Of a stretch of DNA of 41,371 nt, positions 16,760-25,832 are shown piece after piece; position 1 is the first letter of the stretch; every line of letters starts with the position of its first letter. Position numbers and translations under genes: made by a program. The stretch lies in NCBI GenBank assembly GCA_023143145.1, contig JAGLID010000067.1, forward strand, positions 1-41,371, read 5' to 3'. The notes under the pieces were generated by a model, which was not told the DNA's origin, ran no database searches, and saw nothing but the letters and a program-made list of their open reading frames with translations. Source of the DNA: Minisyncoccota bacterium (lineage in GTDB: Bacteria > Patescibacteriota > Minisyncoccia > JAHIHE01 > JAGLIN01).

Positions 16760-17902
16760 ATGCTAAACAAGAATTATATATTTGCAGTATCTTCAATGGT
16801 TGGTACTTCGGTTGGTGTTGGAATTTTTTCGTTGCCATATGTTGCTTCAAAATCGGGATTCTTACCATTTGTAATTCTTATTGTTATATTGGGAGTTATC
16901 ACAACGATTTTAGGTCTAATGTATGGAGAAATAACTTTGAGGACAACAAACAAAGGAAGGCTTGTTGGTTATTGCGAAAAATATCTTGGTAAAAAAGGAA
17001 AGATAATTGCAACGATTGTTGTTCTTTTTACTTTATATTCAAGCCTGCTTGTTTATATTATCATCGGGGGCATTTTTGGTAGTGCTGTATTTTCTAGTTC
17101 TTTAGGAGGAAACGAATTAACATATAGTCTGATAATGTTTGCCGTGATTTCAGTGGGTATCTATATAAGTCTAAAAGTTGTTAGCGTGATTGAATTTTTG
17201 ATGGTTATTTTTCTTTTTATCACAATTCTGGGAATTGTCCTCAAGGGAATACCAATCGTTGATGTTGGCAATCTTGTCACTCATAATTCTTCTCAGTTCT
17301 TCTTTCCGTTTGGAGCAATTCTTTTTTCTTTGGGAGCTTTGTCTGCAATTCCAGTACTTGAGCACATAATGAAGAAAAAACAAAAGAAAATTAAGGATGT
17401 TATAATCATTGGTAATATTATTCCAATTATTATTTACATTCTATTTGTAGTCGTGGTTCTCGGTATAACGGGAGCTGAGACCTCAGTAGAGGCTCTTTAT
17501 GGTCTTAATGTTAGTATTGGGAATGGAATCGTGACTCTTGGTTTGATTTTTGGAATATTTGCTATCTCAACTTCATTTCTAATGTTAGGTATTAATTTAA
17601 AAGAAATGTTTTGGTATGATTATCATCTTAGTGAAAAAAAAGCCTGGGCTCTAACTTGTTTCGTGCCATTGATTGTTTTTGTTTTAGGTCTTCGTGATTT
17701 CATAACAGTTGTAAATATCGCTGGTGGTATCGCTGGTGGATTTATCGGAATCCTAATCATTATTATATTCTATAGGGCAAAAAAGATGGGAGATATTAAA
17801 CCAGCATATAGCATAAAAGTTCCAGTTGTGATTTCACTTGTTATGGTTGTGATATATTCTATCGGAATTGCTTATCAGTTGATTGAAAATTTTAAGATTT
17901 AA
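16760..17902 (+). CDS. amino acid permease (aromatic/hydroxy amino acid or Aa_trans-like)
   Basis: 380 aa with about 10-11 TM helices. The N-terminal signature is VGTSVGVGIFSLPYVASKSGFL. Confidence 0.7.
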   Translation: MLNKNYIFAVSSMVGTSVGVGIFSLPYVASKSGFLPFVILIVILGVITTILGLMYGEITLRTTNKGRLVGYCEKYLGKKGKIIATIVVLFTLYSSLLVYIIIGGIFGSAVFSSSLGGNELTYSLIMFAVISVGIYISLKVVSVIEFLMVIFLFITILGIVLKGIPIVDVGNLVTHNSSQFFFPFGAILFSLGALSAIPVLEHIMKKKQKKIKDVIIIGNIIPIIIYILFVVVVLGITGAETSVEALYGLNVSIGNGIVTLGLIFGIFAISTSFLMLGINLKEMFWYDYHLSEKKAWALTCFVPLIVFVLGLRDFITVVNIAGGIAGGFIGILIIIIFYRAKKMGDIKPAYSIKVPVVISLVMVVIYSIGIAYQLIENFKI

Positions 17903-17909
17903 TAAATAT

Positions 17910-18296
17910 ATGCATAATAAAAATATCAAAAATGTAATTGGATTATGGTTAGCAGTTTTTTTATGGTGTGCCTTTATTTATTTCCTATCCTCAATCCCAA
18001 GTCTGAAATCTGATTTTTCAAGTGAAATTGATTTTGTTTTGCGAAAAATTGCCCATATGAGCGAATATGGGATTTTGACTTTTTTATTCTTCCGAGCCTA
18101 TTCAGGTAGTAAAAATAATCTTTCTAAAAGAAAATCTATTTCTTTGGCGATAATGTTTGCTTTCACTTATGCCCTCACTGATGAATATCATCAGTTGTTT
18201 GTCTCTGGAAGAGAAGGAAGCTTGAGAGATGTGTTTGTTGATAGTCTAGGAATATTTTTCGTGGCATTTTTAATTTACAAAAAAGCGAAAAAATGA
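17910..18296 (+). CDS. VanZ-family membrane protein
   Basis: LRKIAHMSEYGILTFLFFRA ... TDEYHQLFVSGREGSLRDVFVDSLG. The ORF-track TTG start at 17883 overlaps the permease gene. The in-frame ATG at 17910 is preferred. Confidence 0.75.
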   Translation: MHNKNIKNVIGLWLAVFLWCAFIYFLSSIPSLKSDFSSEIDFVLRKIAHMSEYGILTFLFFRAYSGSKNNLSKRKSISLAIMFAFTYALTDEYHQLFVSGREGSLRDVFVDSLGIFFVAFLIYKKAKK

Positions 18297-19458: not shown

Positions 19459-21036
19459 ATGCTAGATATAATTATTAAAAATGGAACTGTAATTGACGGT
19501 ACGGGAAAAAAAGGGATTGTTGCTGACGTTGGCATTGAGAAAGGAAAAATAGCAGAGATTGGAAAAATAGGAGTTAGCAATTTAGTGAAAACAATAGATG
19601 CAACAGGAAAAACTGTTTGTCCTGGTTTTATTGATATACTCGATCATTCTGATAATTTTTGGACAATTTTTACCATTCCAAGACTAGATAGTAAAGTTTT
19701 TGATGGAGTTACTACAATAATTGGTGGGAATTGTGGCACTTCGCTCGCTCCAGTGTCAAATCAAGGTTCAATAGAAGCGATGAGAAAATGGGTCGATATT
19801 GATAATGTTAATATAAACTGGCAAGGTACAAAAGATTTTTTCTTGGAGTTGAATAAGAAAAAAATTGGTTTAAATTTTGGAACATTAATTGGACATGAAA
19901 CTTTAAGAAGGGGTTTACTTGGAGATGAGGTTAGAAAAATTACAGAAGAAGAAGTCGAAATAATAGGGAGAATGCTTTCTGATGGTTTGCAAGCAGGGGC
20001 TTTTGGGTTGTCGACTGGATTGGTTTTTTCTCATGCCAAAATGACGACACTTAATGAACTAAAATTTCTAGCTGATATTCTAAAATCTTCTAACTCTTAT
20101 TATGCAAGTCATATTCGAGGAGAAGCGGAGGAGTTACTGCCGAGTATAAACGAAACAATACATATCGGAAGAGAGATGAAAGTGTCAATTGAAATTTCTC
20201 ATTTAAAGGCAGTCGGAAAAAAATATTGGCCAGATATGCAAAGGGCAATTGATATGATTGATGTTGCGAATGAAGATGGTGTTAATATTAATTTTGACAT
20301 CTATCCATACGACACAACCGGATCTGTTCTTTATATACTTTTACCAGATTGGGTTTCGAATGGAGGAAGGAAAATAATGATAGCGAGACTAAAAGATTTG
20401 AGTTTGAGAGAAAAAATTATTAACGAGATGAAAAGTATGAATTATGATTATAATAATATTGTGATATCAATTTGTCCAAGATTAAAAGAAGCAGTAGGAA
20501 GAAAAATTACTGATATTGCAGTAAGTCAGGAAGTCAGTATTGAAGAAGCAATAATTGAATTATTAATAAGTGCTAATGGTCATGTTATTGTTTTTGATGA
20601 GGGAATTTTAAGTGAAGAAAATATAAAAATTTCACTAAGAAGTCCATATTCAATTATAGCTTCTGGAGATGCTGCATATAATATCGAGTATGTTCGAATG
20701 GGTGAGCTTGTTCATCCGAGATGTTTTGGAACATTTTCTAGAGTTTTGGGAAAATACGTAAGAGAAGAAAAAATTCTTAGTCTGGAAGAAGCAATCAAGA
20801 AAATGACATCTTTGCCTGCTCAGAAAATTGGAATCAAAGACCGAGGAATTTTGCAAAGTGGTAATTGTGCTGACGTTGTAATTTTTGATCAAAAAACAAT
20901 AATTGATAAAGCTACCTATAGCAATCCTTATCAATATTCAAAAGGCATAGAGCATGTTATTATAAATGGTAAAATTGTCATAGATAATTTTGAGCACACT
21001 GGAGAATTAGCAGGAAAAGTTTTGAAGAAACGGTAA
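19459..21036 (+). CDS. D-aminoacylase-family amidohydrolase (N-acyl-D-amino-acid deacylase-like)
   Basis: N-terminal beta-sandwich IIIKNGTVIDGTG...ADVGIEKGKIAEIG, then PGFIDILDHSD. GGNCGTSLAP places a Cys at the metal-ligand position of D-aminoacylases. The C-terminus has ADVVIFD...ATYSNP...GIEHVIINGK. No signal peptide. Confidence 0.75.
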   Translation: MLDIIIKNGTVIDGTGKKGIVADVGIEKGKIAEIGKIGVSNLVKTIDATGKTVCPGFIDILDHSDNFWTIFTIPRLDSKVFDGVTTIIGGNCGTSLAPVSNQGSIEAMRKWVDIDNVNINWQGTKDFFLELNKKKIGLNFGTLIGHETLRRGLLGDEVRKITEEEVEIIGRMLSDGLQAGAFGLSTGLVFSHAKMTTLNELKFLADILKSSNSYYASHIRGEAEELLPSINETIHIGREMKVSIEISHLKAVGKKYWPDMQRAIDMIDVANEDGVNINFDIYPYDTTGSVLYILLPDWVSNGGRKIMIARLKDLSLREKIINEMKSMNYDYNNIVISICPRLKEAVGRKITDIAVSQEVSIEEAIIELLISANGHVIVFDEGILSEENIKISLRSPYSIIASGDAAYNIEYVRMGELVHPRCFGTFSRVLGKYVREEKILSLEEAIKKMTSLPAQKIGIKDRGILQSGNCADVVIFDQKTIIDKATYSNPYQYSKGIEHVIINGKIVIDNFEHTGELAGKVLKKR

Positions 21037-21081: not shown

Positions 21082-22038
21082 ATGCTAAGAATAAAGAATA
21101 TTTTAGACAAATTAAAAAAACAAGATCAGCAAGATTATGGTGTTGCTGTTTTTGATATTGATTTAGAAGTAACTAAGAAAGGAGTATTTATTTTTGGAGA
21201 AGTTTTGATTGAAAATCAAAAAGATAAAGTTTTAGAATTGTTGAAAAAAGAAAACATAGAAATTGCAAATGAGAAAATAAAAGTTTTGAGTGATGTAAGT
21301 AAGAGATATGAGATTGGTTGGGTTGTGGTGAAAGCTAAAATTGCAGATTTAAAATCGAGATTTGTTTCAGAAAAAAATATAAATGAAAACATTTTAAAAA
21401 GAATAAGATGCTCGCAAGCCTTTAAGGGAGAAATTTTGCGAGTTTTGTATAAAAATGAGGATCAATTATTGGTTCAGCAAAACGATTTGACGTTGGGTTG
21501 GATAAACAAAAATGAGGTTATTGTAAAGAAAGAAAGTTTTTATAAAGAATGGAAAAAGGGAAATTATGCAATCAAGGACAAGTTGATAAAAAGTAAGGTT
21601 TCAATTGATGTGACTATAAAAGAAGCAGAAAAATATCTTGGCTCAAAATATCTCCTTGGCGGAAAAACCAAAAACGGAATTGATTGTTCAGCGTTAATTC
21701 AGATTGTCTACAAAAATTCTTTAGGCATTGTTCTGCCAAAGCATTCATGGGATCAAAAAAAGATTGGAAAAAAAGTAGATTTAAAAGATATAGAAACAGG
21801 GGATTTGATTTTCTTGATAAAAAAAAACAACAAGCATAAACATGTTGGAATTGTTGAAGTGTTATTAGAGGGAATTGCGAAAAGGAATTACAGCTCAAAA
21901 GGTACTATGGAACTATCAGATAGGTCTAATATAAATTTAATTCACGCCTCGCTGGATCAGAAAAAAGTAATCAGACAGGATTTGAAAAAAGTTTTTGAGG
22001 ATTATGACTTTGTAGAAGCGAAGAGAGTTATTCTTTGA
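21082..22038 (+). CDS. NlpC/P60 (C40) cysteine peptidase with N-terminal SH3b-like region; no signal peptide
   Basis: Catalytic Cys in GGKTKNGIDCSALIQIVY, His in HKHVGIV, then NLIHAS. The N-terminal half has SH3b-like strands (GWVVVKAKIADLKS; LLVQQNDLTLGWINKNEV). Confidence 0.8.
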   Translation: MLRIKNILDKLKKQDQQDYGVAVFDIDLEVTKKGVFIFGEVLIENQKDKVLELLKKENIEIANEKIKVLSDVSKRYEIGWVVVKAKIADLKSRFVSEKNINENILKRIRCSQAFKGEILRVLYKNEDQLLVQQNDLTLGWINKNEVIVKKESFYKEWKKGNYAIKDKLIKSKVSIDVTIKEAEKYLGSKYLLGGKTKNGIDCSALIQIVYKNSLGIVLPKHSWDQKKIGKKVDLKDIETGDLIFLIKKNNKHKHVGIVEVLLEGIAKRNYSSKGTMELSDRSNINLIHASLDQKKVIRQDLKKVFEDYDFVEAKRVIL

Positions 22039-22050
22039 AATAAAAAAATA

Positions 22051-22085
22051 GAGAATCTAATAGTTTTTGTTTACTATTAGCTCTC
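22051..22085. terminator. hairpin terminator between convergent genes
   Basis: GAGA-at-CTAATAGT-(8 nt)-ACTATTAG-c-TCTC. The T-run follows it on the - strand, so it mainly serves the 22077..22553 gene. Confidence 0.5.
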
Positions 22086-22553
22086 TATGGTAGAGCTAAG
22101 TTCTATTTGTACCTCACATTCATATCTTCTTATTATGACATTTCCTCCAGCAGATTTAAATGCTAAGACTGAATCGGAAAATCCCATTAATCTCTTCATT
22201 GTATTTGCTTTTCCTAACTGTTTTTCGAGGAATTCTTCTGTTTGCTTTTCCCTTTCTAATATTATTTCGATGAATTCATCTTCAAGTAAGACGTCTTGTT
22301 CAATGAATCTCGATATTCCTTCATTAATTTCTAACTGTATTCCATTGATTTCGCATGTCGGATTGATATAATCAATAGTATCAATTCTTAGTTTCCATTT
22401 TTTATTGCGTAATGTTAAACTAATCTTTGCTTGTTTTTGTGGAAAATATACAGTTCCTTCGTTGCATAAGATTTCTCTAAAAGCTCTTTCTGCATTCGTT
22501 CTTCCATTTCCTTGACTAGTCTTAAAGTATAATGTCAATTTTTCCTCTGCCAT
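22077..22553 (-). CDS. hypothetical protein (orphan, opposite strand inside the dcw region)
   Basis: The ORF track gives 22077..22583. The internal Met (MAEEKLTLYF...) has GGAGG 7 nt upstream and is the likelier start. No motif recognised. Confidence 0.55.
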   Translation of the reverse strand: MAEEKLTLYFKTSQGNGRTNAERAFREILCNEGTVYFPQKQAKISLTLRNKKWKLRIDTIDYINPTCEINGIQLEINEGISRFIEQDVLLEDEFIEIILEREKQTEEFLEKQLGKANTMKRLMGFSDSVLAFKSAGGNVIIRRYECEVQIELSSTIES

Positions 22554-22595
22554 TTTATGACCTCCTATAACAATTAATAACAATAATCTAAATAA

Positions 22596-24140
22596 ATGTC
22601 AATAGAAAATCAATTGAAACAATATAAAAATAAAAACATTCACATCGTTGGAATTGGCGGGGCGGAGGGGAGTGCGATTGCGGAGTTTTTGGTGGCCAAT
22701 GGAATTTCTTCGATTACTGGGCATGATTTTTCTTCGAAGGGGGATTTCAAAAAAGCCTTTAATAATACTCATTTGAGTTTGAAACCAGAAGAAAGAGAGG
22801 AGGCTCTGGATCATCTTTTGAATTTGCCAATCAAAATAAATTTCAGAGATCATTATCTGGAAGATGTCAAAGAAGCAGATATAGTTTTTGTTTCGCAGGT
22901 CTGGTTTAAGTATCCTCAAAATATGCCGATTTTAGAAAATATTAAAGATGATGGCGTTCCGTTTAAGACAATTACAAATTTATATTTTGAACTTATGCCG
23001 GGCAAGATTATTTCTGTAACAGGAACGAATGGTAAAACAACAACTTCAAGGTTAATAAACAATATTTTTGAGGATTGGAAAGAAACTTGTCTCGAATATA
23101 CTTCACTAGGAGATGAAAATGACGTTTCTTGTATTGCCTTTCAGGTGGATAAGAAGGATGATATTTTAAATGTTTATTTTGCTGGAAACGATAGACAAAA
23201 TCTGCAAGTTTTGGATCAACTTGAGAAAATGAAAAAAGAAGATATTTTGATTCTAGAGACTAGCAGCACTCAGCTTCTTTTGAATTCTTGTATAAGCCCA
23301 TCTATTGGAGTAATCACGAATATTTCTCCGAACCATCTTGATGATCACGGGAGTATTGAAAATTACATAGAAGCTAAGAAAAATTTAATTCGATATCAAA
23401 AGAAAGGAGACTGGGCAGTTTTGAATTATGACAATGAGCAGACTAGAAAAATCGCGAAGGAATTTTCAGATAATGCATTTTTGTTTAGCGCTAAAGAGGA
23501 ATTGACACAAGGTTGTTTTGTGAAGGGTGGCGAGGTAGTGATTAGAATAAACGAGGAAGAATTTGTCTTGTTTTTAGTAGACGATATAAAAATTCCAGGA
23601 AATCATAATTTGGAAAATGTTTTAGCGGCAGCTAGTTGTGCATATTTATATGGAATTAATCTAGAAATAATTAAGAAGATGATTTCAAAATATACAGGAA
23701 CAAAGCACCGGCTGAAACTTCTTTATAATATTGATGGAATAAAATATTATGATGATACGCAAGCTACAAATCCAGAATCGACAATTGCTGGAATTAACTC
23801 TTTTGATAATGATATAATTTTGCTTTCTGGTGGAGACGACAAGAGAATGAATTATGAAGAACTTGGACAGAGTATTAACAGTCGAGTTAAGTTTCTGATA
23901 TTATTTCCAGGAGGTGCGTCTGAGAAAATTGAAAGTTTGGTTAATAAGAAGAAGATTGATTTTGTGAAAGTGAAAAATTTTCAAGAGGCGATTGATGAAT
24001 TAAAAAAATATTATCAAAAAACTGATCTTAAAAAAGACGGTACGGTTTTGATTTCTCCCGGAGCGGCACATTTCTATTCAAGATTTGTTGAAAATTCTGG
24101 AAAGGACTTGAAGGAATGGATTAGATCTATTAATATTTAA
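22596..24140 (+). CDS. murD: UDP-N-acetylmuramoylalanine--D-glutamate ligase
   Basis: IHIVGIGGAEGSAIAEFL, P-loop VTGTNGKTTT, ILETSSTQL, GNHNLENVLAA, GTKHRLK and DDTQATNPEST. An extra segment of about 35 aa follows the P-loop helix. Confidence 0.85.
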   Translation: MSIENQLKQYKNKNIHIVGIGGAEGSAIAEFLVANGISSITGHDFSSKGDFKKAFNNTHLSLKPEEREEALDHLLNLPIKINFRDHYLEDVKEADIVFVSQVWFKYPQNMPILENIKDDGVPFKTITNLYFELMPGKIISVTGTNGKTTTSRLINNIFEDWKETCLEYTSLGDENDVSCIAFQVDKKDDILNVYFAGNDRQNLQVLDQLEKMKKEDILILETSSTQLLLNSCISPSIGVITNISPNHLDDHGSIENYIEAKKNLIRYQKKGDWAVLNYDNEQTRKIAKEFSDNAFLFSAKEELTQGCFVKGGEVVIRINEEEFVLFLVDDIKIPGNHNLENVLAAASCAYLYGINLEIIKKMISKYTGTKHRLKLLYNIDGIKYYDDTQATNPESTIAGINSFDNDIILLSGGDDKRMNYEELGQSINSRVKFLILFPGGASEKIESLVNKKKIDFVKVKNFQEAIDELKKYYQKTDLKKDGTVLISPGAAHFYSRFVENSGKDLKEWIRSINI

Positions 24141-24164
24141 GACGACTTACTATTCAGTGTTAAT

Positions 24165-24317
24165 CTATTTTTCCTCCTCAATTAATTCCAGTTCAATCGG
24201 TTCTGTTGAGATTATTTCATGTTCAGCACCACAGGCAGGGCACGCAATGATATCTCCAATTTTAATTGTTTTTTCATCAACTGGAATCTCGCAACCGCAC
24301 TCTTGGCAATTTGTCAT
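24165..24317 (-). CDS. LysW-like zinc-ribbon protein (amino-group carrier protein fold), 50 aa; not in the ORF track
   Basis: My own translation of the - strand gives MTNCQECGCEIPVDEKTIKIGDIIACPACGAEHEIISTEPIELELIEEEK. CxxC...CxxCGAExE(I/V)(I/V)...P(I/L)xLE matches the LysW pattern as I remember it from Thermus and Sulfolobus. A near-consensus promoter lies upstream. There is no obvious SD. Confidence 0.55.
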   Translation of the reverse strand: MTNCQECGCEIPVDEKTIKIGDIIACPACGAEHEIISTEPIELELIEEEK

Positions 24318-24343
24318 ATATTTGATTTAATGATTATGTACTA

Positions 24344-24371
24344 ATTATAGTAAGATAAATTAAAAAGTCAA
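24344..24371 (-). promoter_or_regulatory. sigma70-like promoter for the LysW-like ORF
   Basis: On the - strand: TTGACT (24371..24366), a 16-nt spacer, then TATAAT (24349..24344). This lies about 26 nt upstream of the ATG at 24317. Confidence 0.45.
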
Positions 24372-24396
24372 AAAAAGAAAGGCATCAGTTGCCTTT
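24370..24396 (-). terminator. intrinsic terminator of the 107-aa membrane-protein gene
   Basis: On the - strand: AAAGGCA-actga-TGCCTTT followed by CTTTTTTT, 5 nt after the stop at 24401. Confidence 0.55.
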
Positions 24397-24400
24397 AATA

Positions 24401-24724
24401 TCAATATTTAAGCTTGATTGAAATTGTTTTCATTTTTATTTCTGGATGTTTCTTTAGGAAAACAATTCCTGTGACAAGCATAATTGAAACAAATATCATT
24501 CCTGCATACGACAATATCTCATTGTGAAATATCATCATATTGCTTATAAATAATATTGCTAACAATTCTGATACAATTATTGATATAAATTTCCAATTTT
24601 GTTTTGCTTCCTCGTGATTTGCTGTAATTCTCTTAATAATTATATACCCAAGAGCAATAATTATAAACATTAGAATTAAAAAATGAGAGAAAATGAGCAC
24701 TCTTTGAATTATTTCTGAATACAT
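24401..24724 (-). CDS. small 3-TM membrane protein, unknown function
   Basis: 107 aa with three hydrophobic helices. GGAG lies 11 nt upstream of the ATG, and a terminator follows immediately downstream. Confidence 0.5.
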   Translation of the reverse strand: MYSEIIQRVLIFSHFLILMFIIIALGYIIIKRITANHEEAKQNWKFISIIVSELLAILFISNMMIFHNEILSYAGMIFVSIMLVTGIVFLKKHPEIKMKTISIKLKY

Positions 24725-24767: not shown

Positions 24768-25832
24768 ATGTCAATCTTTCAAGAAAAAATCAATAAACAA
24801 GAAATAGGCATTTGGAGGTATGTTGGTTTTTATAATGATTTTGTGAAATCAGAAAATAGATTATATCTTGAAGATGGGAATTTGGAAAAATTAGAAAATG
24901 AGGATTTGAATAAAATAAGCAAGATAAAGCATTTATATTTTCAGCGAGAGGATGAAAATGAAACGGGATCGCTAAAAGGCAGGAGCCTTGCCTATCAGGT
25001 TTCGCTTGCGAAGCAAAATGGGATAAAAGAACTTGTAATTTCAACTTCTGGAAATGCGGGAATTGCGGCGGCTGCATATTGTCAGGAAGCGGAAATAAAA
25101 TTATATATTTTTATTTCTCCTGAAACAGAAAAAGCCAAAATTGCGAAAATGCAGAAATATAATCCAATAATAATAGAATCAAAAAAAGCGATTCGGTTGG
25201 CTAATTATCTTTCTGCTAGGTATAAAATTGAAAATTTAAGACCTTCTTTAAATGACTCTTCTATTGAGGGTTTTAAGTCGATCGCTTTTGAAATATTTGA
25301 GAAATTAGGAGAGATTGATGCTCTGTTCACTTTTGTGACTAGCGGAAGTTCGTTTGTGGGAATTGGTAGGGCATATCAACATTTATTGGATTGCGATAAG
25401 ATAAAAAAGATGCCAAAATTATTTGCAGTGCAAAGCGGAGAGATTTCATCTATTGCGGGAGATTTCGAAAAAATAACCAAGCAAAAAGATTCAGTAGCCG
25501 GAAGATTGGGAGTAAAAAATACGAGAAGAAAAAAAGAGATTTTGGAATTTATAAAGTTAAGCGGAGGAAGTGGAATTTATATAAATAATCAAGAGCTTCA
25601 AGAAGCGACACAGATATTGGAAGGAAATAAAATAATTACATCGCAAGAAGGTTGTGCAAGTTTTGCAGCAAGTCTGAGAGAAGGAAAAAAATATAATTTA
25701 AATAAAGTGGTTTGTGTACTTTCTGGAAAATCAAGAGATAGGAATAATCAGGTTACAAAAGATAAAATCAAAATAGCAGAAAGTTTTAATGATGTGGATA
25801 ATATTATTATTGGGAAATTTAATTATTGTTAG
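24768..25832 (+). CDS. threonine-synthase-like fold-type II PLP-dependent enzyme
   Basis: N-terminal GIWRY (ThrC-like). PLP-lysine motif ENETGSLKGRS (compare NPTGSFKDRG), then ISTSGNAGIAAAAYC and FVTSGSSFVGIG. 354 aa. Confidence 0.7.
   Translation: MSIFQEKINKQEIGIWRYVGFYNDFVKSENRLYLEDGNLEKLENEDLNKISKIKHLYFQREDENETGSLKGRSLAYQVSLAKQNGIKELVISTSGNAGIAAAAYCQEAEIKLYIFISPETEKAKIAKMQKYNPIIIESKKAIRLANYLSARYKIENLRPSLNDSSIEGFKSIAFEIFEKLGEIDALFTFVTSGSSFVGIGRAYQHLLDCDKIKKMPKLFAVQSGEISSIAGDFEKITKQKDSVAGRLGVKNTRRKKEILEFIKLSGGSGIYINNQELQEATQILEGNKIITSQEGCASFAASLREGKKYNLNKVVCVLSGKSRDRNNQVTKDKIKIAESFNDVDNIIIGKFNYC

Follow-up and report, generated by a model that had tools for sequence, protein, structure and literature searches.

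The DNA analysed here is contig JAGLID010000067.1 of a Minisyncoccota bacterium (GenBank assembly GCA_023143145.1), positions 1 to 41,371, referred to below as the window. On its minus strand, beside a MurD-type ligase gene, it encodes a 50-amino-acid (aa) zinc-ribbon protein of the LysW fold, which we call the ribbon. This ribbon very probably represents a distinct subfamily of LysW-like proteins ending in Glu-Glu-Lys (EEK) and is a conserved member of a gene cassette with the recurrent order NlpC/P60 peptidase, MurD-type ligase, ribbon, pyridoxal 5'-phosphate (PLP) enzyme, and ATP-grasp ligase. The cassette, located at the murD step, is apparently an undescribed gene set present in several bacterial phyla; a search of the full-text literature found no LysW-like protein tied to an ATP-grasp enzyme plus a Mur ligase, to peptidoglycan, or to the candidate phyla radiation (CPR) or Chloroflexi. 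A role of the cassette in cell-wall precursor synthesis is probable. The coordinates of all features discussed are collected in Table 1.

A LysW fold that is not canonical LysW

The ribbon was translated from ATG to stop over 50 codons as MTNCQECGCEIPVDEKTIKIGDIIACPACGAEHEIISTEPIELELIEEEK*. This protein matched the Pfam hidden Markov model (HMM) PF21344 (Zn_ribbon_LysW) with 41.6 bits, above the gathering threshold of 27 (E 9.4e-11), residues 3-48 being aligned to model positions 2-46 of 46. When all PDB sequences were searched with phmmer, LysW from Thermococcus (5k2m_E, E 9.3e-07) and LysW from Thermus (3wwl_A, E 3.7e-06) were the only significant matches. The protein is acidic (13 Asp/Glu versus 3 Lys, the only basic residues; pI 4.06), and its cysteines C4, C7, C26, and C29 are invariant among 28 relatives. 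A first-pass annotation, made by a model from the letters alone, had reported an unlisted 50-aa minus-strand open reading frame (ORF) at this position, with four zinc cysteines and a LysW-type fold, by comparison with a Thermus LysW sequence. The translation obtained here is identical to the one given there, and the 3wwl_A alignment reproduced the Thermus sequence used there; the cysteines and the motifs G(D/E)(I/L)(I/V)xC, CGAExE(I/V)(I/V), and (D/E)P(I/L)xLE are all present in the PDB alignment. The same annotation had observed that the canonical EDWGE end is absent and that the terminal residue is Lys. This holds as well: the PDB alignment extends along LysW no farther than residue 48 of 54 and leaves DWGE with no counterpart in the ribbon, which ends in LIEEEK, four residues short of the EDWGE end of the solved LysW proteins.

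Both curated LysW models were missed despite the Pfam match. The ribbon scored 34.0 bits against the TIGR01206 equivalog (cutoff 53.2) and 35.4 bits against NF041070 (cutoff 75), and the match to these models ends at position 48 of 54. No gene annotated in the window or in gene-called sister contigs encodes LysX, LysZ, LysY, LysJ, or LysK. NCBI records name the ribbon homologs "lysine biosynthesis protein LysW", and this name, together with the PF21344 and PDB chain matches, would favor an ordinary amino-group carrier of the LysW/ArgW kind, serving the synthesis of lysine or arginine. Because the ribbon fails the curated scores and lacks the EDWGE end, a LysX-type partner (the neighboring ATP-grasp enzyme is not LysX/RimK-like), and a LysZYJK context, it should not be filed as LysW, and we regard the ordinary carrier as exceedingly improbable. 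The ribbon is a non-canonical LysW that does not serve lysine biosynthesis. The first-pass annotation had raised two options, a carrier whose attachment chemistry differs and recruitment of the LysW fold to another role; the evidence shows that the fold was recruited to a conserved, cell-wall-linked cassette. The finding of this cassette thereby corrects a systematic misannotation in public records.

The Glu-Lys tail as a subfamily signature

The C-terminal LELIEEEK is unchanged in seven close homologs. Of 26 distinct ATP-grasp-linked relatives, 25 end in EEK and one in DEK, and among relatives that keep the tail the identity of the ribbon body drops to about 31-50%. The conservation of the ORF and its C-terminus was examined at the codon level in 17 orthologs. 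Codons 48 and 50 have undergone synonymous changes only (GAA/GAG and AAA/AAG), codon 49 is GAA in 17 of 17, and codon 47 encodes Glu except in locus L161, which has Asp. The position of the stop codon is constant, with TAA, TAG, and TGA each used there. Taken together, the synonymous-only tail codons and the constant stop position indicate selection both on the residues of the tail and on the exact point at which the protein ends.

An exhaustive search with the profile resulted in 594 LysW-like proteins at E <= 1e-3. Among the best 150 of these 594, 18 end in (D/E)(D/E)K and four in W(G/A/S)E (EDWGE/EDWAE), and many of the remainder have long acidic tails; from this tally, the EEK form constitutes a discrete subfamily. 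Judged from the collected sequences, the EEK end is a family signature that extends across phyla, and its invariance strongly suggests that the tail is still a functional handle.

Other tail types were encountered in the same family. Proteins P0136, P0145, P0167, P0187, and others end in neither EDWGE nor EEK and carry poly-acidic extensions of 20-40 residues; some poly-acidic tails finish in W-containing motifs such as DDDWD and EEDWDT. Protein P0131 (103 aa) is a tandem double ribbon in which only the second copy has the end ...ALIEEEK. The tail diversity of the LysW-like fold family thus appears largely uncharted.

Conservation of the cassette from both search directions

The cassette was defined by searches seeded with the ATP-grasp enzyme and, independently of it, with the ribbon. 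The ATP-grasp-seeded set comprised 80 genome loci (78% to 21% identity), in which all ORFs were scanned with a ribbon HMM. Ribbons were located 1-2 kb from the ATP-grasp gene in Parcubacteria/Paceibacteria, and ATP-grasp-near ribbons were also found in metagenome-assembled genomes (MAGs) labeled as Moraniibacteriota, Wirthbacteria, Peribacteria, Anaerolineae/Anaerolineales, Caldilineae, Ardenticatenales, Candidatus Epilinea, Dormibacterota, and Verrucomicrobiia. Where a PLP enzyme gene is adjacent and the upstream sequence extends for at least 2.5 kb, 23 of 33 loci have a ribbon; none was present in the approximately 40 loci with a more distantly related ATP-grasp subfamily and no PLP enzyme. 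In 22 ribbon-less loci with PLP enzyme and ATP-grasp genes, neither a divergent zinc ribbon nor another EEK-ending ORF was found.

For the reverse search, a degenerate DNA signature derived from the ribbon only, CxxCGxE-x7-P-x6-(D/E)(D/E)EK-stop, was run on a metagenome collection; in shuffles of the window, zero matches to this signature are expected. This search resulted in at least 120 loci encoding at least 97 distinct ribbons. Neighbors were counted among the matches listed only, with a control for contig edges. Of 59 loci, 50 have a PLP enzyme gene no more than 1.2 kb 5' of the ribbon, in divergent orientation in every case, and 30 of 36 have an ATP-grasp gene no farther than 2.8 kb away. 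The 3' neighbor is a MurD-type ligase gene (34 of 58 loci) or mraY (15 of 58). Ribbons outside the cassette have no recurrent alternative partner among the matches listed; their neighbors are unrelated housekeeping genes (MiaB-like, GT4, CorA, TsaE, MnmA, XerC, ABC1 kinase).

The ribbon gene and its expression signals

The ribbon ORF is almost certainly a genuine protein-coding gene, as judged from several lines of sequence evidence. The same protein is annotated as a gene product on six public contigs, and BLASTP identified six more 50-aa homologs with 64-76% identity. Across the 17 orthologous 50-codon ORFs, the median synonymous divergence (pS) is 0.73 and the median nonsynonymous divergence (pN) 0.21, a ratio of 0.28. 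Two antisense ORFs on the plus strand (24157..24330 and 24219..24344) were rejected as shadows, having no meaningful similarity.

The gene has its own near-consensus promoter, as the first-pass annotation had stated: the sigma-70-type element upstream of the ribbon is the top-scoring one in the region, and the -35/-10 pair is kept in loci L008, L009, L012, L114, L121, L144, L161, and L207. It directly follows a terminator-like hairpin (24396..24378) that ends the upstream 107-aa ORF. Between the promoter and the start codon lies a leader whose motif (...AATCATTAAATCAAATATATG) is conserved 5' of the ribbon orthologs, including those that have a different promoter. The convergent arrangement with murD described earlier was also borne out, since the MurD-type gene ends at 24140, 24 bp from the ribbon stop codon. 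No Shine-Dalgarno motif was found upstream of the ribbon ORF. Thirteen other gene starts in the window (e.g., 18332, 22596, 24768, and 37012) were checked and likewise have no Shine-Dalgarno-like motif, the upstream sequence being A/T-rich. The missing motif is therefore no argument against translation of the ribbon, and the source organism apparently does not depend on Shine-Dalgarno-led initiation.

Table 1. Positions of the ribbon gene, its signals, and the surrounding genes in the window
Feature	Position	Strand	Basis and remarks
LysW-fold zinc-ribbon gene, 50 aa	24165..24317, including stop	-	Translation; Pfam PF21344; PDB LysW matches
Zinc cysteines C4, C7, C26, C29	Codons 24308-24306, 24299-24297, 24242-24240, 24233-24231	-	
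C-terminal tail LELIEEEK plus stop	24165..24191	-	Conserved; signature hydrophobic-hydrophobic-(E/D)(E/D)E-K-COOH
Sigma-70-type promoter TTGACT-16-TATAAT	24344..24371	-	11/12 positions; top score in region
Conserved leader, -10 box to ATG (...AATCATTAAATCAAATAT)	24318..24343	-	Recurs 5' of orthologs
D-aminoacylase / N-acyl-D-glutamate-deacylase-like amidohydrolase	19459..21036	+	1m7j E 5.9e-72; 3gip E 9.8e-69
NlpC/P60 papain-like peptidase	21082..22038	+	PF00877 63.7 bits
168-aa ORF	22077-22583	-	No Pfam/NCBIfam match; gene-called in sister contigs
MurD-type Mur ligase, 514 aa	22596..24140	+	TIGR01087 252 bits (cutoff 212); convergent with ribbon
Hydrophobic 107-aa ORF with own terminator-like hairpin	24401-24724	-	No Pfam/NCBIfam match; gene-called in sister contigs
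Threonine-synthase-like fold-type-II PLP enzyme	24768..25832	+	PF00291; divergent from ribbon
ATP-grasp ligase, 456 aa	25860..27230	+	PF02655; NF005096 136 bits (cutoff 684)

Gene order and partner enzymes in the window

In the window, the division and cell wall (dcw) genes are ordered mraY (18332), amidohydrolase, NlpC/P60 peptidase, MurD-type ligase, ribbon, 107-aa ORF, PLP enzyme, and ATP-grasp ligase, followed by ftsW, murG, murC, and murB. An amino-acid permease gene and a VanZ gene are located directly upstream of mraY (16760-18296). The hydrophobic 107-aa ORF is confined to the closest relatives (107-111 aa) and is absent from loci L007 and L008.

The PDB matches of the amidohydrolase are a D-aminoacylase (1m7j) and an N-acyl-D-glutamate deacylase (3gip). 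This gene is an accessory of the Parcubacteria version of the cassette, and the order mraY-amidohydrolase-NlpC/P60-murD is conserved in the sister contigs. The NlpC/P60 peptidase recurs in the cassette across several phyla and has PDB relatives that include MepS/Spr, the NlpC/P60 protein 3h41, and dipeptidyl-peptidase VI (3npf/3pvq). No hydrophobic leader and no signal peptide were found at its N-terminus, and the enzyme is likely to be cytoplasmic. From their sequences, the amidohydrolase and the peptidase look like a cytoplasmic muropeptide-salvage pair that possibly yields D-Glu for MurD.

The MurD-type ligase exceeds the MurD equivalog cutoff, but its TIGR01087 match is broken into two stretches: the N-terminal domain matches weakly, and about 50 aa are inserted. 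It aligned to MurD 3lk7 with an E-value of 7.5e-47 over residues 211-492, the N-terminal domain scoring just 19.8 bits. Other cassette ligases scored 247, 224, 197, 192, and 188 against the same cutoff of 212.

The PLP enzyme scored below every ThrC cutoff (top score 128.6, cutoff 358). When its profile was compared with the PDB, the matches were ThrC (6e-33), Ser racemase (1e-17), and Asp racemase (8e-13). The AlphaFold2 model (predicted local distance difference test score, pLDDT, 88.5) is nearest in Foldseek to ThrC, with a template modeling (TM) score of 0.77, followed by TdcB and the Ser/Asp racemases. The PLP-lysine motif is retained; the Arg of the ThrC motif NPYRIEGQK, which presumably binds the substrate phosphate, is aligned to Ser. 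Among 120 matches listed, PLP-enzyme homologs had no fusions, and no fusion of the ribbon to an enzyme was found. The sole instance of PALP and ATP-grasp_3 domains in one predicted protein is P0061 (676 aa), encoded on a JGI contig of 2.9 kb; as a single case on a short contig, it may reflect a lost stop codon instead of a natural fusion.

The ATP-grasp ligase that the first-pass annotation had placed nearby belongs to a Patescibacteria/Chloroflexota family. The AlphaFold2 model (pLDDT 89, predicted TM score 0.90) has PurK, biotin carboxylase, PurD, CPS, L-amino-acid ligase, and BesA as Foldseek neighbors with TM scores of 0.5-0.62, and LysX/RimK is not among the top 50 matches. No PDB sequence matched at E <= 0.01, and the weak NCBIfam matches include the gamma-glutamyl ligases MfnD and BesA. 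Identification of this enzyme as D-Ala-D-Ala ligase was excluded because a bona fide Ddl (305-355 bits, above cutoff) coexists in the same clusters. A class IV aminotransferase of the window was considered as a D-amino-acid transaminase, which would be a conventional source of D-Glu, and was also excluded, scoring 420 bits against IlvE (cutoff 307) and 43-49 bits against the Dat models.

Layouts of the cassette and the link to the murD position

The cassette occurs in several arrangements; in Patescibacteria it occupies the murD slot of the cell-wall cluster. In layout A, which includes the window, it is arranged around murD, with mraY on one side and ftsW on the other. Layout B (e.g., loci L110, L134, and L128) consists of murE, a MurC/Mpl-like ligase gene scoring below both curated cutoffs, murF, mraY, a gene for a papain-like protein, and the ribbon, and continues with the PLP enzyme, ATP-grasp, ftsW, and murG. 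The papain-like protein is a divergent form of the NlpC/P60 peptidase, 235-250 aa in length; it contains the motif GIDCSGF and matches NlpC/P60 and CHAP below threshold. In two layout B clusters (L125 and L155), ddl directly precedes murF. No MurD is detectable in the fetched layout B stretches, where the cassette fills the murD slot. In L110, L134, L128, L151, L171, and L194, there is neither a detectable MurD-type gene nor a murC after murG.

Stand-alone cassettes were identified in Dormibacterota (L085) and Caldilineae (L048), where the flanking genes encode AAA/VWA, DnaJ, PyrB, and aldolase proteins and no ftsW or murG match was found in the 10-kb flanks. Mur ligases from stand-alone cassettes scored 192, 224, and 197 against the TIGR01087 cutoff of 212 and aligned only from about model position 73-93 onward. 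The occurrence of the cassette on its own in these loci argues that it is a functional unit and not a mere consequence of dcw synteny. Elsewhere the cluster is split. The half with PLP enzyme, ATP-grasp, and ftsW lacks the ribbon in L025-L032, L212, and L213, and the murD half carries it in L092, L207, and L144 (about 3 kb from murD). Considered with layout B, the split clusters tie the ribbon to both halves.

Variants of the surroundings were also noted. In L212 (8256-8858) and L213 (8128-8772), a conserved ORF of 200-214 aa precedes the PLP enzyme gene in the usual place of the ribbon; its product has a Rossmann-fold, methyltransferase-like appearance and no Pfam match. In a Chloroflexota MAG (L039:8863-11356), mraY is directly followed by an ATP-grasp homolog (NF005096, 134 bits), with no ribbon, PLP enzyme, or MurD gene beside the pair. 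A further ATP-grasp subfamily (24-31% identity; L050-L054) is encoded about 5 kb from murG-ftsW-murD. The entire ATP-grasp family seems to be linked to cell-wall clusters.

Proposed mechanism and relation to known systems

LysW-type amino-group carriers have been described in the synthesis of lysine and arginine and in a few antibiotic pathways, and all of those known to us hold the substrate on the C-terminal Glu. Like LysW/ArgW of Thermus, Sulfolobus, and Thermococcus (3wwl, 5k2m), the ribbon has the PF21344 fold, a similar length (50 versus 53-54 aa), an acidic composition with a flexible acidic C-terminal tail, and an ATP-grasp ligase encoded nearby. It differs in ending in ...EEEK instead of ...EDWGE, the terminal Glu of which carries the substrate on its gamma-carboxyl, and in its context, which is peptidoglycan precursor synthesis with no LysX/RimK-type partner and no LysZ/Y/J/K. 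The gene set hints at a carrier-protein-dependent step in building the wall peptide. We give an even chance to the ribbon being a covalent carrier or scaffold, by analogy with LysW. The explanation that we favor overall, in which a carrier or scaffold ribbon acts in a murD-step cassette with its output directed to the D-Glu position, we hold tentatively, at slightly less than even.

By analogy with LysW and with RimK acting on ribosomal protein S6, the flexible acidic tail would reach into the cassette enzymes at their active sites. There, an ATP-dependent ligase would join an amino acid covalently to the Glu-Lys end, the PLP enzyme would convert the tethered (or incoming) amino acid, and the papain-like peptidase would cut the link and regenerate the carrier, the product going to position 2 of the peptidoglycan stem peptide, which is that of D-glutamate. 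The invariance of the terminal Lys suggests a part for its epsilon-amine, or for Lys itself as the leaving group; were this not so, any acidic residue would serve. In the detail that we prefer, the side-chain carboxyl of Glu would be tied to the epsilon-amine of Lys50, the alpha-amino-acid head would remain free for epimerization, and Glu would be freed by hydrolysis of the gamma-glutamyl amide; NlpC/P60 enzymes normally cut bonds of this type. A fold-type-II PLP enzyme needs a free alpha-amine, so that side-chain tethering to Lys50 would keep the amino acid PLP-competent. Relative to LysW, the proposed attachment of an amino acid to a Lys epsilon-amine would reverse the polarity. The murD position, the neighboring D-aminoacylase/N-acyl-D-Glu deacylase-like gene, and the MurD2/MurL precedent point to D-glutamate. 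We infer covalent loading, the attachment atom, the substrate, and the D-Glu link, and the version with Glu on Lys50 and D-Glu supply is, as specified, unlikely. Less likely still is a specific variant in which the ATP-grasp enzyme loads the terminal Lys of the carrier, the ThrC-like enzyme epimerizes the load, the MurD-type ligase receives it or NlpC/P60 releases it, and the layout B module replaces MurD.

Parts of this scheme have counterparts elsewhere. The CysO-CysM-Mec+ and related protein-thiocarboxylate systems consist of a carrier with a conserved C-terminus, an ATP-dependent activator, a fold-type-II PLP enzyme, and a releasing protease, the same logic of parts as in the ribbon cassette. 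They differ in using a ubiquitin-like fold with a Gly-Gly end, sulfur chemistry, E1-like adenylation, and a JAMM protease, where the corresponding parts of the cassette are a zinc ribbon ending in Glu-Lys, an ATP-grasp enzyme, and an NlpC/P60 peptidase. In Enterococcus and Lactococcus, the ATP-grasp D-aspartate ligase Asl(fm), which works with an aspartate racemase, acylates the Lys epsilon-amine after D-isoglutamate (D-iGlu), joining a side-chain carboxyl to a Lys epsilon-amine as proposed here for Lys50. The acceptor in that case is UDP-MurNAc-pentapeptide and not a protein, the racemase is PLP-independent, and no sequence relationship of the cassette ATP-grasp enzyme to Asl(fm) was detected. 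Cyanophycin synthetase (CphA, with an ATP-grasp and a Mur-ligase domain) and RimK with ribosomal protein S6 add amino acids to the carboxyls of acidic primers. Both are polymer-forming or tail-extending, work with neither a PLP enzyme nor a peptidase, and act on primers that are not zinc ribbons. An alternative D-Glu route beside murD has been described in Xanthomonas and relatives, bacteria that lack D-Glu synthesis and use MurD2/MurL (PMC8788868). That system resembles the cassette in having accessory genes beside a non-canonical MurD-type ligase and an ATP-dependent conversion (PMC8788868). It has no carrier protein, PLP enzyme, ATP-grasp enzyme, or peptidase, and for the cassette a role in D-Glu supply is inferred.

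Several observations weigh against the carrier mechanism. In ten loci, PLP enzyme and ATP-grasp genes occur and a ribbon is missing over a distance of 10 kb, and about 15% of the ribbons, among the matches listed, lie away from the cassette; with the split clusters, these cases leave several candidates for the direct partner. The PLP enzyme is nearer to threonine synthase than to the racemases, and since the ATP-grasp enzyme is not LysX/RimK-like, the analogy with LysW-LysX is one of logic only. Layout B has no MurD that could use the product locally, the IlvE-type aminotransferase of the window is uninformative on the source of D-Glu, and glutamate racemization does not obviously need a carrier.

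Some of these points would be accommodated if the ribbon were a non-covalent subunit or regulator that binds a cassette enzyme such as the MurD-type ligase, or a pseudo-substrate that restrains NlpC/P60, its Glu-Lys-COOH mimicking the D-iGlu-L-Lys end of the stem peptide. PLP enzyme and ATP-grasp pairs without a nearby ribbon fit this possibility, as do the split clusters, in which the ribbon keeps to the murD/NlpC-P60 half and not the PLP enzyme/ATP-grasp half, and the predicted promoter, by which the ribbon would be transcribed separately from the enzymes. A cytoplasmic peptidase of the gamma-D-Glu-diamino-acid type near precursor synthesis would also plausibly require control. However, the last two residues and the end point are absolutely conserved on a LysW-type handle tail, which fits a substrate better than a binder, and the ribbon accompanies the PLP enzyme and ATP-grasp genes even where the MurD-type ligase is missing (layout B). 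We therefore consider a regulator possible and clearly less probable than a carrier or scaffold.

Two further explanations give the tail a different fate. As a primer or scaffold for peptide building, it would be extended by the ATP-grasp enzyme and the Mur-type ligase, in the way that cyanophycin synthetase lengthens a primer by means of its ATP-grasp and Mur-ligase domains, and the peptidase would release a short peptide destined for the wall precursor. The pairing of an ATP-grasp and a Mur-family ligase with a peptidase and an amino-acid-modifying PLP enzyme is in line with this, and in stand-alone cassettes the Mur ligase diverges in its N-terminal (UDP-binding) domain and reaches borderline MurD scores (192-224 against 212); in layout B, the extra MurC/Mpl-like ligase could attach a preformed peptide. 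Against these stand the window ligase, which scores above the cutoff of the MurD equivalog and occupies the usual place of murD, and the lack of a Mur ligase beside the ribbon in layout B, and the primer is accordingly a rather improbable reading. Far less probable still is a precursor of a ribosomally synthesized and post-translationally modified peptide (RiPP) of the graspetide-like type, in which the ATP-grasp enzyme would cross-link Lys and Glu side chains of the tail. A short product whose tail contains Glu and Lys, encoded near an ATP-grasp gene, would suit such a pathway, but the enzyme belongs to the PurK/biotin carboxylase/L-amino-acid-ligase-like fold class, there is no leader/core layout, exporter, or leader protease, and the neighbors are cell-wall genes. 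Moreover, RiPP cores are hypervariable, whereas the ribbon is a folded zinc ribbon whose tail is near-invariant across phyla, encoded in a housekeeping cluster.

Implications

These results link a LysW fold with a strictly conserved Glu-Lys end to early cytoplasmic peptidoglycan synthesis, which is among the best-studied and most drug-targeted bacterial pathways. To our knowledge, the wall chemistry of Patescibacteria/CPR, Chloroflexota, and Dormibacterota is almost unknown, and these groups are difficult to study in culture; the cassette is a compact set of five small soluble proteins, suited to expression in E. coli, and is directly testable. If the tail is a covalent handle, it would represent a new attachment chemistry for LysW-type carriers, and a link to D-glutamate, if true, would amount to a new supply of this position of the stem peptide, comparable in kind to the discovery of MurD2/MurL. 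Because some clusters have no detectable MurD, the cassette also raises the question of whether the MurD step is carried out differently in the bacteria that carry them.

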